This document shows, one piece after another, positions 29,139-32,000 of a DNA stretch of 32,000 bases. Both the position numbers and the translations under genes were made by a program. This DNA is from Ferroglobus placidus DSM 10642 (GTDB taxonomy: Archaea > Halobacteriota > Archaeoglobi > Archaeoglobales > Archaeoglobaceae), in NCBI RefSeq assembly GCF_000025505.1, contig NC_013849.1, positions 780,001 through 812,000 of the forward strand, written 5' to 3'. How positions within the stretch are numbered: position 1 is the stretch's first letter; every line of letters starts with the position of its first letter. Below the pieces are notes generated by a model. That model ran no database searches. It was not told the origin of the DNA and saw only the letters and a program-made list of their open reading frames with translations.

Positions 29139-30140
29139 ATGATTAAAGTCGGAATAGTGGGAGGAACCGGCTACACTGGAGGGGAGCTTTTAAGAATTCT
29201 TTCAACGCATCCTGAGGCTGAAGTTGTCGCTGTAAGCTCGAGAAAAGACGTTGGAAGGAAAATTCACGAAGTTCATCCCCATCTAAAAGGCTTTTACGAT
29301 ATCGAGTTCGTTCTGCCGGAGCTTAAAAACTTCGATGAATGCGACGTCGTTTTTACAGCCGTGCCTCACGGTGAGGCGATGAATTACGTTCCTCAGTTCC
29401 TGGAGGTAGGAATTAAAGTTATCGACCTCTCGGCAGATTACAGATTGAAAAAGGAGGTTTACGAGGAAGTTTACGGAAAAAAGCACGATGCTTATTTTGA
29501 AGCCGTTTACGGCTTGACGGAGCTTCACAGAGAAGAGATAAAGAAAGCTAAACTTGTGGCGAATCCAGGATGCTATCCGACGGGAGCGATTTTAGCTGCA
29601 GCTCCTTTAGCTGAAAAGGAACTGATAGAAAGAGTAGTCTTCGATTCTAAAAGCGGAATAACCGGAGCTGGAGCTTCTCCGACAGATTTCACGCATTTCC
29701 CCAACCTTCACGAGTCGATAGTTCCTTACAAAATAACCGACCACCGCCACTACTACGAGATGCTTCAAGAGTTGAAAGCTCTGCAAGAGGACATAAGAAT
29801 ATCTTTCACCCCTCAGGTTTTCCCCGGGTCGAGAGGAATTTTAACGAACGCCCACATCTTTCTCAGAGGAGACCTCGAAGAGGGGGAAATCAAGAAGATT
29901 TACGAGAAGTTCTACGAAGGATGTAAATTTATAAGGTTTCAGGAGAGCGTTAAGCTGATCTACGTTAGGGGAAGCAACTTCTGCGACATATCGATTCACA
30001 AGGGAAAAGACAGAGCTGTGATAATTTCGGCTATAGACAACCTCGTGAAGGGGGCGAGCGGACAAGCGGTTCAGAACATGAACGTCATGTTCGGGCTGGA
30101 GGAGGATGAGGGTTTGAATTACCCGCCGCTGTTCCCATGA
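29139..30140 (+). CDS. argC: N-acetyl-gamma-glutamyl-phosphate reductase (ArgC/LysY family)
   Basis: MIKVGIVGGTGYTGGELLRIL is the Rossmann motif and NPGCYPTG holds the catalytic Cys. I prefer the ATG at 29139, which follows GAGGGTGGTG, over the track's TTG at 29100. Confidence 0.9.
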   Translation: MIKVGIVGGTGYTGGELLRILSTHPEAEVVAVSSRKDVGRKIHEVHPHLKGFYDIEFVLPELKNFDECDVVFTAVPHGEAMNYVPQFLEVGIKVIDLSADYRLKKEVYEEVYGKKHDAYFEAVYGLTELHREEIKKAKLVANPGCYPTGAILAAAPLAEKELIERVVFDSKSGITGAGASPTDFTHFPNLHESIVPYKITDHRHYYEMLQELKALQEDIRISFTPQVFPGSRGILTNAHIFLRGDLEEGEIKKIYEKFYEGCKFIRFQESVKLIYVRGSNFCDISIHKGKDRAVIISAIDNLVKGASGQAVQNMNVMFGLEEDEGLNYPPLFP

Positions 30141-30853
30141 GCTGCGAAGACGCTTTGAAGGAAATAGCCAGGAAAAAGCTCCTCTTCGGAAAAGATCTCG
30201 TGAAGAAAGTGGTGGAGTGCGAGGATGCTCCAGAGCTTGTGGTGAAACTCGCCGACGAGCTTGATGAGATCAGCGATGGATGGTTTTCCGTTCACGCGAT
30301 CTTCATACTCTCGATAATCGGAAACGACAGAGCTTTCGAAGCTCTGAAGCACATAGTGTCGACGAGAGACCTCGGAGACTTTACAGTCGAGGACTTACCC
30401 TACTTGTTCGCGAGGTTTGAAGGAAAAGCGAGTGAGCTGAAGGAGATCGTGGAAAACGAGAATTTCGACGTTTTCGTAAGACTCGCGGCTTTCAAGGCTT
30501 TAATGCATTTAAGTAGGGAAGACGCCGAACTCGTTGCGGAGAAACTCCTCGAAGAAGTAAAAAAGAAAAAGGACGAGAGCTGCGTCTTTCTCATGTACAT
30601 TTCAGCTCTCGGAGGGAAGTTCAGGGAGGAGTGTTTAAAGCTCGCCGAGGATTGCGAAATTCACCCAGAAGATCTTCTAACTGAACTCGATTTCAGACTC
30701 GAAGATCCCTGGGAGCACTTCAGCCCCGAAAGCCTTCTGAGGCTTTACAAAATCAACTACGGGAAGCTAAACTTCGATAAATACGCTCCGTGTTTTTGCG
30801 GCTCGGGAAAGAAGTTCAAGTTCTGCTGCTACGAAGTCTGGAAGAGGATATAG
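30137..30853 (+). CDS. HEAT-like repeat protein with a C-terminal SEC-C metal-binding motif
   Basis: The C-terminus PCFCGSGKKFKFCC is a SEC-C motif. VRLAAFKALMHL is HEAT-like. There is an ATGA overlap with argC. Confidence 0.7.
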   Translation: MSCEDALKEIARKKLLFGKDLVKKVVECEDAPELVVKLADELDEISDGWFSVHAIFILSIIGNDRAFEALKHIVSTRDLGDFTVEDLPYLFARFEGKASELKEIVENENFDVFVRLAAFKALMHLSREDAELVAEKLLEEVKKKKDESCVFLMYISALGGKFREECLKLAEDCEIHPEDLLTELDFRLEDPWEHFSPESLLRLYKINYGKLNFDKYAPCFCGSGKKFKFCCYEVWKRI

Positions 30854-30857
30854 AAGG

Positions 30858-31940
30858 CTATCCGGACTCGATTCTTTCGAGCAGCTCTTTAGGAAGAAAG
30901 CTCTTAACGAACTCGTAAACTTTTGGAGAAACCCAGACCACTCTTTTCCATCCACCTTCCCCCTTCAAAAAGCTTGGAGATTTTAGATAAGCGAAGCTAA
31001 CTCCAGCAAACCCCTCCACTTGCCAACCAGCTATCAATTTCTCCATCTCTTCGAAAGTCAAGCCGACGGGAGTCTTCTTTTTGTACTCTCTGTCCACGAT
31101 TCCAAAGCCGTCTTTTTCCGGAATGTAGAAAACTATGGTTTCGGCAAAATTTCCGGCTAAAGGAGGATTTTCGAGAACTCTGTGAAGCTTTACTCTCTCG
31201 ACTTTTCCTTCCGTCATTTCTTTCACAGCCTCGTTAACTCCCGAGTACTCCCCTTCTTTCTCGCTGATCACCTCTCCCTTCTCTATGGGAAAGTAGTACT
31301 CCACGACCTTCAGCTCTTCAGCATTCCTAGCCTCTGCATAAGTCGTTCCGCAAGGCGAAGGTCTTTCCGGAGTTATCACGCAGACGTGGTTCGGCAGGTA
31401 AACCTGACAAGATTTGCAGCCGTAAAATCTATCAACGCTTATCTCTTTCAGCTCTCTTAACCTTTCCTCTCTCTTTTTATGAATTTCCTCAGCCCTTTTC
31501 TTCAACTTCTCGAATTCTTCCCTCTCGCAAACTATTCTGACTTTAACCGATTTTACAGCGGGAATAGACTTTACTGCTTCGTAAATAACTTTAGCGACGC
31601 ACTCCGCCGAAAACTTCTCTTCAGCTTCTTTGGAAATTTTTATCAAAGCCCTCTCCTTTCTGAAGGAGTAAGATACACCCTTCATCCTGTTTATCACTTC
31701 TCCAAAGAGACTCTCTATTGCTGAAGCCGCATCGTCGCTTATTCCGGAAACGAGAACGTGAATTCCCATCACGTCACCAAGCTCACCCAATACTTCGATC
31801 CCATCCCCCTCTCCGACTTCGACGAGCTCCACGACTCTGATCTCCTTTCCCTCAACTCTCTCTCCGGAAAAAAGTTCGCTCATCTCCAAGCAATCAGCTT
31901 TCACGTCTATTTTCTCCGGATCTATGTAGCGGTGGATCAT
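30858..31940 (-). CDS. CdhC / acetyl-CoA synthase (A-cluster subunit) paralog lacking the Ni-binding Cys-Gly-Cys
   Basis: FYGCKSCQVYLPNHVCVITPERPSPCG reproduces the C-x2-C-x8-C-x9-C cubane motif of ACS/CdhC. At the position where CdhC has ENPMTSCGCFE, this protein has ENPPLAGNFAE. An AGGAG sequence lies about 10 nt upstream of the ATG. Confidence 0.75.
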   Translation of the reverse strand: MIHRYIDPEKIDVKADCLEMSELFSGERVEGKEIRVVELVEVGEGDGIEVLGELGDVMGIHVLVSGISDDAASAIESLFGEVINRMKGVSYSFRKERALIKISKEAEEKFSAECVAKVIYEAVKSIPAVKSVKVRIVCEREEFEKLKKRAEEIHKKREERLRELKEISVDRFYGCKSCQVYLPNHVCVITPERPSPCGTTYAEARNAEELKVVEYYFPIEKGEVISEKEGEYSGVNEAVKEMTEGKVERVKLHRVLENPPLAGNFAETIVFYIPEKDGFGIVDREYKKKTPVGLTFEEMEKLIAGWQVEGFAGVSFAYLKSPSFLKGEGGWKRVVWVSPKVYEFVKSFLPKELLERIESG

Positions 31941-32000
31941 TTCCAGTTGCTCCTATCCTCTGAAAATGAAAGTTGCGGAAGTCGTTAATACTCTCAATAA

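Follow-up and report, generated by a model that had tools for sequence, protein, structure and literature searches.

Acetyl-CoA synthase (ACS) is among the most studied ancient metalloenzymes, and genes that match it routinely serve as markers of the Wood-Ljungdahl pathway in genomes and metagenomes. The closest described relatives of the protein considered here are archaeal CdhC (TIGR00316; structure 9c0s_E; Ferp_0733-type copy), the beta, A-cluster-bearing subunit of acetyl-CoA decarbonylase/synthase (ACDS), and bacterial AcsB (Moorella, Carboxydothermus, C. autoethanogenum; structures 1oao, 7zkj, 6ytt). We analysed a stretch of 32,000 nucleotides from Ferroglobus placidus DSM 10642 (contig NC_013849.1, positions 780,001 to 812,000 of the forward strand), referred to below as the window, whose right end carries a gene for a 360-aa paralog of CdhC. 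This paralog keeps the four cysteines of the [4Fe-4S] cubane and has lost the Cys-Gly-Cys to which the proximal and distal nickel bind. We consider it probable that the protein is a neofunctionalised, nickel-free member of the CdhC/AcsB fold, which is not an acetyl-CoA synthase, holds an ordinary [4Fe-4S] cluster and works outside ACDS. The features on which this reading draws first are the following:

30858-31940, minus strand: coding sequence of the 360-aa nickel-less CdhC paralog, A2-like plus A3-like (open reading frame, PF19436 match, AlphaFold2 model, TM 0.87 to 9c0s_E, start shared with orthologs)
31350-31418, minus strand: [4Fe-4S] ligand motif C175-x2-C178-x8-C187-x9-C197 (translation of these exact coordinates, CKSCQVYLPNHVCVITPERPSPC)
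31146-31154, minus strand: Gly263-Asn264-Phe265, where the nickel-binding Cys-Gly-Cys stood (translation and HMMER alignment)

Consistent with the first-pass annotation of this DNA, which had aligned the protein by eye to the A-cluster subunit of ACDS, a Pfam search finds PF19436 (ACS_CODH_B_C) over residues 155-354 (174.6 bits, E 3.5e-51, cut-off 25). The match to PF03598, the N-terminal CdhC domain, is weak (21.4 bits, under its cut-off of 24). The top solved relative in HMMER is Methanosarcina thermophila CdhC 9c0s_E (E 2.5e-55), and the bacterial AcsB structures give E values of 1e-38 to 1e-43 and template modelling (TM) scores of 0.76-0.86. The AlphaFold2 (AF2) model has a predicted local distance difference test (pLDDT) score of 90.9, and Foldseek superposes it on 9c0s_E, in which CdhC is bound to carbon monoxide dehydrogenase (CODH), with TM 0.87, a root-mean-square deviation of 2.6 A and 33% identity; the A2-A3 fold of ACS is thus present in the protein as modelled. 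Its start methionine is, by alignment, the same as that of the orthologs.

With archaeal CdhC the paralog shares this A2-A3 fold, an identical C-x2-C-x8-C-x9-C motif and many framework residues, for example G26-E27, FY-x-PE and GF-x-G. It differs by carrying G-(N/L)-(F/Y) for Cys-Gly-Cys, by replacement of the conserved R, H and W and of the Phe gate, by the absence of a C-terminal extension of roughly 100-160 aa, by its place outside the cdh operon and by a TIGR00316 score under cut-off. Like bacterial AcsB it has A2, A3 and the same cubane ligands; unlike AcsB it is devoid of the A1 domain, of the nickel ligands and of the CoA-binding determinants. The length shortfall of about 100 aa noted at first pass was found again, as 360 aa compare with 460-470 aa in archaeal CdhC and 525 aa in the canonical copy of the same genome (100-165 aa less), and beyond the absent tail the N-terminal domain also carries small deletions. 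The cdhC equivalog model TIGR00316, which represents CO-methylating acetyl-CoA synthase (EC 2.3.1.169), scores 263.4 bits on the paralog, against a cut-off of 355.95, and 800.8 bits on the canonical CdhC of F. placidus. This bears out the early warning that a cdhC label would be wrong, and UniRef, JGI and the ESM Atlas still name the orthologs 'CO-methylating acetyl-CoA synthase'; the label 'subunit beta' is in use as well.

Cubane ligands, nickel site and acetyl-CoA contacts

Translation of residues 175-197 confirms the cubane spacing read from the sequence at first pass, with ligands that correspond to C506, C509, C518 and C528 in Moorella ACS numbering. These four cysteines are invariant in the paralogs and in canonical ACS alike. 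The loss of Cys-Gly-Cys, reported at first pass from the segment ENPPLAGNFAE, also holds, since HMMER aligns this segment over DAPHTSCGCFE of 9c0s_E. The whole protein has seven cysteines (17, 114, 138, 175, 178, 187 and 197) and none in residues 198-360 of the full translated sequence, which excludes a shifted Cys-Gly-Cys. The same state extends to the whole clade described below: C-x-C is absent from 49/49 long and 9/9 short members, all of which have the four cubane cysteines, and C-G-C is kept in the 62 canonical CdhC/AcsB compared. In the long paralogs the triplet starts with G (49/49), followed by L/N and finally Y/F. With both nickel cysteines replaced in every long and short member, the earlier statement that no normal A-cluster can be assembled is well supported.

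The substitutions extend past the nickel site. In the ACS of C. autoethanogenum, W405 forms a stack with the acetyl-CoA adenine, R383 and H386 lie at the acetyl group beside nickel, and Phe491 is the swinging Phe (bioRxiv 10.1101/2024.08.05.606187). We compared 62 canonical sequences with 49 long paralogs column by column, in the numbering of F. placidus canonical CdhC; R110, H113 and W132 would correspond to R383, H386 and W405 by their R-x2-H-x18-W spacing, and F218 to Phe491. The replaced canonical residues, which were 90-100% conserved among canonical sequences, are listed here after the segment that contains several of them:

31644-31712, minus strand: former acetyl-CoA/catalytic segment, residues 77-99 (Arg to Ser77, His to Gly80, Trp to Leu99), which holds the clade-specific F93-R94-K95
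R110: S or A in the paralogs
H113: G, S or P
H124: Y
R128: K
W132: V, R, E or L
R134: variable
S217-F218-A219: x-Y-L
D241: E
P250: I, V, L or S
P253: Y
C301-G302-C303-F304: G-(L/N)-(Y/F)-(S/A)
A338: E
C-terminal extension: absent as a whole

The Phe gate (F491 of C. autoethanogenum, F512 in Moorella) is replaced by Y181 in the F. placidus paralog. Judged from these alignments, the damage is wider than had first been seen, with the acetyl-CoA-contacting Arg, His and Trp and the Phe gate lost as well; because the canonical residues are replaced at each of them, the nickel site, the CoA site and the gate would all be dismantled.

In place of the lost residues the clade has invariants of its own, namely C17, F93-R94-K95, C114, F143, H154, S177, L182, P196, T199, E203, Y215-Y216, G263, E300 and S338, among 51 invariant columns. 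The two new cysteines are invariant in 48-49 of the 49 long forms:

31890-31892, minus strand: Cys17, new clade-invariant cysteine (Pro in canonical sequences)
31599-31601, minus strand: Cys114, new clade-invariant cysteine (Tyr, His or Gln in canonical sequences)

Such a pattern, new invariants where old ones disappeared, fits a changed function and not decay.

A conserved clade confined to Archaeoglobi

A search of 5.8 billion proteins returned 46 clusters close to the query (338-378 aa, 47-92% identity, 328-726 bits); canonical CdhC (460-470 aa) comes after a clear break in score, at no more than 233 bits. Exhaustive HMMER against 1.84 billion representatives gave 606 and 517 bits and then a drop to 278. 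Among 96 Archaeoglobi genomes, the long form is present in 22, from seven genera, and a short form reduced to the A3-like domain in 12 more, from three genera including A. veneficus. The frame is open and full-length in 21 of the 22 long-form genomes (7 genera, 45-92% identity). The other copy, from a metagenome-assembled genome (MAG; G029:C60:400-1443 (+)), has two in-frame TAA codons and may be a pseudogene or an assembly error.

In a maximum-likelihood tree, long and short forms make up one clade (support 100). Its stem measures 1.39 substitutions per site, its internal branches are deep, and the short forms branch from within the long ones (support 99). The clade falls outside that of canonical Archaeoglobi CdhC, its exact sister being uncertain (long-branch warning). 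Between the F. placidus paralog and its congeneric ortholog, the ratio of non-synonymous to synonymous substitution rates (dN/dS) is 0.07, at a synonymous divergence (dS) of 1.4, which is near saturation. The paralogs are monophyletic, restricted to Archaeoglobi and under purifying selection. The question of a distinct conserved clade, left to phylogeny at first pass, is thereby answered in the affirmative, and the suggestion of a repurposed Fe-S protein is strengthened by a conserved clade under purifying selection that has kept its cubane cysteines.

The short forms (177-211 aa; proteins P0121-P0130) consist of the A3-like domain only. Genes for them were located at:

L011:4974-5558, plus strand: short form
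L013:5037-5570, plus strand: short form
L014:1517-2053, minus strand: short form
L015:4968-5504, plus strand: short form

They belong to the same clade as the long paralog, have likewise lost C-x-C and retain the signature residues S177, E300 and S338, together with an aromatic residue at 216. They differ from it by the absence of the N-terminal A2-like domain, hence of C17 and C114, and by an extra cysteine just before the first cubane cysteine (CC-x-S-C-Q). Because the short forms do without the domain that bears C17 and C114, the core function would sit in the A3-like domain, and both cysteines would be an elaboration of the long forms.

Gene neighbourhood and the wider ACS superfamily

The gene appears monocistronic and likely has its own promoter, in a spacer that opens at the right end of the window:

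31941-32000, minus strand: first part of an AT-rich upstream spacer of 117 bp that runs past the window toward the divergent gene of a beta-propeller lipoprotein; likely promoter of the paralog

The next gene beyond the right end of the window, which the first-pass annotation had wished to see recorded, is divergent and encodes a 616-aa lipoprotein-like beta-propeller protein of PF09826 (genome 812058-813908; L010:159-2009 (+)). Downstream of the paralog lie a convergent DUF1186/SEC-C gene and then argC. The former (window 30137-30853, plus strand) codes for a DUF1186 protein of 238 aa whose C-terminus bears a SEC-C metal-binding motif; the gene begins in an ATGA overlap with the stop of argC, and 4 bp separate its end from the paralog's stop codon.

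As stated at first pass, no cdh gene accompanies the paralog in the window; none lies in the next 10 kb to the right either, and none adjoins it in 23 orthologous loci. The canonical operon, whose existence elsewhere in the genome had been left to be checked, lies about 170 kb away, where a second PF19436 match is found at about 637 kb. Its gene order is cdhA (end), cdhB, cdhC (525 aa, HTSCGCFE), a cooC-like gene and cdhD, which matches the CODH/ACS operon published as Ferp_0731-33/0735-36.

Two other neighbours recur, and neither was retained as a guide to function. A TIGR00725/SLOG-cluster-4 (LOG-like) gene, often followed by YjbQ/UPF0047, faces the paralog head-to-head in 21 of the 34 paralog-bearing genomes, from 8 of 10 genera, short forms included (7/12 genomes). 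This adjacency is possibly positional, because the LOG-like gene is widespread whether or not the paralog is present (77/96 Archaeoglobi genomes), because A. fulgidus keeps the same backbone of LOG and ribosomal-protein genes with the paralog simply absent, and because in F. placidus the LOG-YjbQ pair is 1.3 Mb from the paralog, at 2.149 Mb (L050:4100-4984 (+), genome about 2,148,600-2,149,480). A ThiS/MoaD-like gene and moeA lie downstream of the paralog in 6 of 23 loci, mostly of one genus, which is too narrow a distribution for a function to be drawn from it. In these six loci (L006:6163-7660, L007:6178-7700, L018, L020, L040, L044) both genes share the strand of the paralog, at intervals of 56-110 bp; the ThiS/MoaD-like protein has 88 aa and ends in GG, and an operon with molybdopterin/tungsten cofactor genes may exist there.

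Loss of the nickel motif was also found among more distant proteins. The best 147 non-clade representatives of the 1.84 billion search (P0166-P0312) were aligned onto the family alignment, and 140 of them span the motif. C-x-C is lacking in 48 of the 140, of which 45 keep all four cubane cysteines and 25 have a triplet free of cysteine; since nickel-less proteins supplied the query profile, these proportions are enriched and give no estimate for the whole superfamily. The C-x-C state changes at least 10 times on the tree (FastTree; individual joins uncertain), with at least 10 independent losses, which suggests that loss of the motif is recurrent and goes beyond one archaeal family. The nickel-less representatives comprise proteins of AcsB length (about 700 aa) and of CdhC length. 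Like the paralog, proteins such as P0171, P0173, P0175, P0178 and P0181 retain all four cysteines of the cubane and are missing one nickel cysteine or both; they differ from it in forming separate lineages of 410-720 aa, some with the Arg/His pair and none in the Archaeoglobi clade.

P0173 is a 443-aa CdhC-like protein with TGL for CGC and the Arg/His pair kept. Its gene (L046:5001-6332 (+), on an archaeal scaffold from TARA Oceans) is again a solitary one, in a housekeeping neighbourhood (Pelota, PcrB, LysRS), and no cdh gene lies within 5 kb. P0141 and P0144 (632 aa) were rejected as nickel-less, as their Cys-Ser-Cys keeps both nickel thiolates; with their relatives P0179, P0204, P0207, P0216 and P0240 they form a divergent ACS-like clade of about 630 aa with Cys-Ser-Cys and an N-terminal A1-like domain. 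A search for fused or longer forms of the paralog gave only canonical AcsB and CdhC types.

Our literature search found no description of a nickel-less ACS paralog, its incomplete coverage leaving room for an earlier one. In the genome paper on G. ahangari (PMC4600277) the ortholog appears only in a list, under the words 'additional copy of the beta' subunit. A 2026 preprint on ACS phylogeny describes clades devoid of the C-terminal extension, and the nickel-less Archaeoglobi clade is not among them. Expression data for the paralog were sought by locus tag in the literature and none were found.

Alternative explanations and significance

For a nickel-free protein working outside ACDS, the most likely role would be that of an Fe-S module for low-potential electron transfer or redox sensing. 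The A3-like domain would carry an ordinary [4Fe-4S] cluster, and the former nickel pocket, where the clade-specific S177, L182, E203, Y215, Y216, G263 and E300 now form the lining, has probably been turned over to another ligand or partner.

Several observations weigh against this reading. The NCBIfam model NF003379 (PRK04456) passes the paralog (424.6 bits vs 372), which makes it a 'subunit beta' by a looser criterion; the model is of the 'domain' type, its label naming a domain and not a function, and more divergent clade members fail it (P0046 with 230 bits, a short form with 192 bits). Canonical CdhC accompanies the paralog in 33 of 34 genomes, the lone other one being a 570-contig MAG, and this would fit an ACDS-linked role. 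To these are added the near-saturated dS behind the dN/dS estimate and the pair C17 and C114, which may form a new metal site in the long forms.

The best of the alternatives is nonetheless doubtful: a new enzyme, in which the ACS scaffold and the cubane serve a different active site and a reaction unrelated to acetyl-CoA synthesis. That site would consist of the clade-specific polar residues E300, E203, Y215, Y216, S177, R94, K95 and H154, possibly with a second metal site via C17/C114 in the long forms. Many new residues are indeed invariant exactly where canonical invariants vanished, purifying selection is strong, the two new cysteines are nearly universal in the long forms, and the loss of C-x-C in at least 10 cubane-keeping ACS lineages suggests a reusable scaffold. 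However, the short forms do without C17, C114 and R94/K95 and are still conserved in three genera, no conserved operon partner points to a pathway, and no substrate can be named.

Unlikely to a greater degree is a non-catalytic accessory protein or regulator of ACDS, a pseudoenzyme that would take the place of CdhC by docking on CdhA or CdhD/E and so modulate the flux of CO or methyl groups. The predicted fold is nearest to CODH-bound CdhC, and, besides the co-occurrence with canonical CdhC, the paralog is absent, among the 96 genomes, from the genus in which ACS is mostly missing. This co-occurrence is weak evidence, because canonical CdhC is present in most Archaeoglobi anyway (82/96 genomes). 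Moreover, the paralog is never cdh-linked in the 23 loci, it is devoid of the disordered tail at the C-terminus through which CdhC crosslinks to CdhA in ACDS, and the short forms have no A2 domain, which supplies part of the CdhA interface.

A decaying, functionless cdhC duplicate would explain the loss of every catalytic determinant and the MAG copy with two in-frame TAA codons, and it is very unlikely in view of the low dN/dS, the full-length frames across seven genera, the 51 invariant columns, the confident AF2 model and the age of a clade with a long stem and deep internal branches. It is just as improbable that the protein is still an acetyl-CoA synthase with nickel bound by other ligands, since the fold, the cubane and the NF003379 score stand against the absence of cysteine from residues 198-360, the replacement of Cys-Gly-Cys, of the CoA-binding Trp, of the Arg/His pair and of the Phe gate, a TIGR00316 score under cut-off and a complete canonical operon already in the genome.

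On the reading we prefer, a nickel-free Fe-S protein outside ACDS, the ACS scaffold has a second use besides acetyl-CoA synthesis. A broader proposal, tentative and put forward only as possible, is that the Archaeoglobi proteins and the 10 or more other nickel-less lineages represent an unrecognised functional class, in which an A3 scaffold with a plain [4Fe-4S] cluster is reused for nickel- and CoA-free chemistry or sensing; C17 and C114 of the long Archaeoglobi forms might then build a second metal site. To spectroscopists, the nickel-less clade offers an A3 domain that is 'cubane-only' by nature. The consequence for annotation, and wherever ACS serves to mark the pathway, is practical and reaches beyond one archaeal family: matches to this clade must not be counted as ACS, despite the name 'CO-methylating acetyl-CoA synthase' that they bear.

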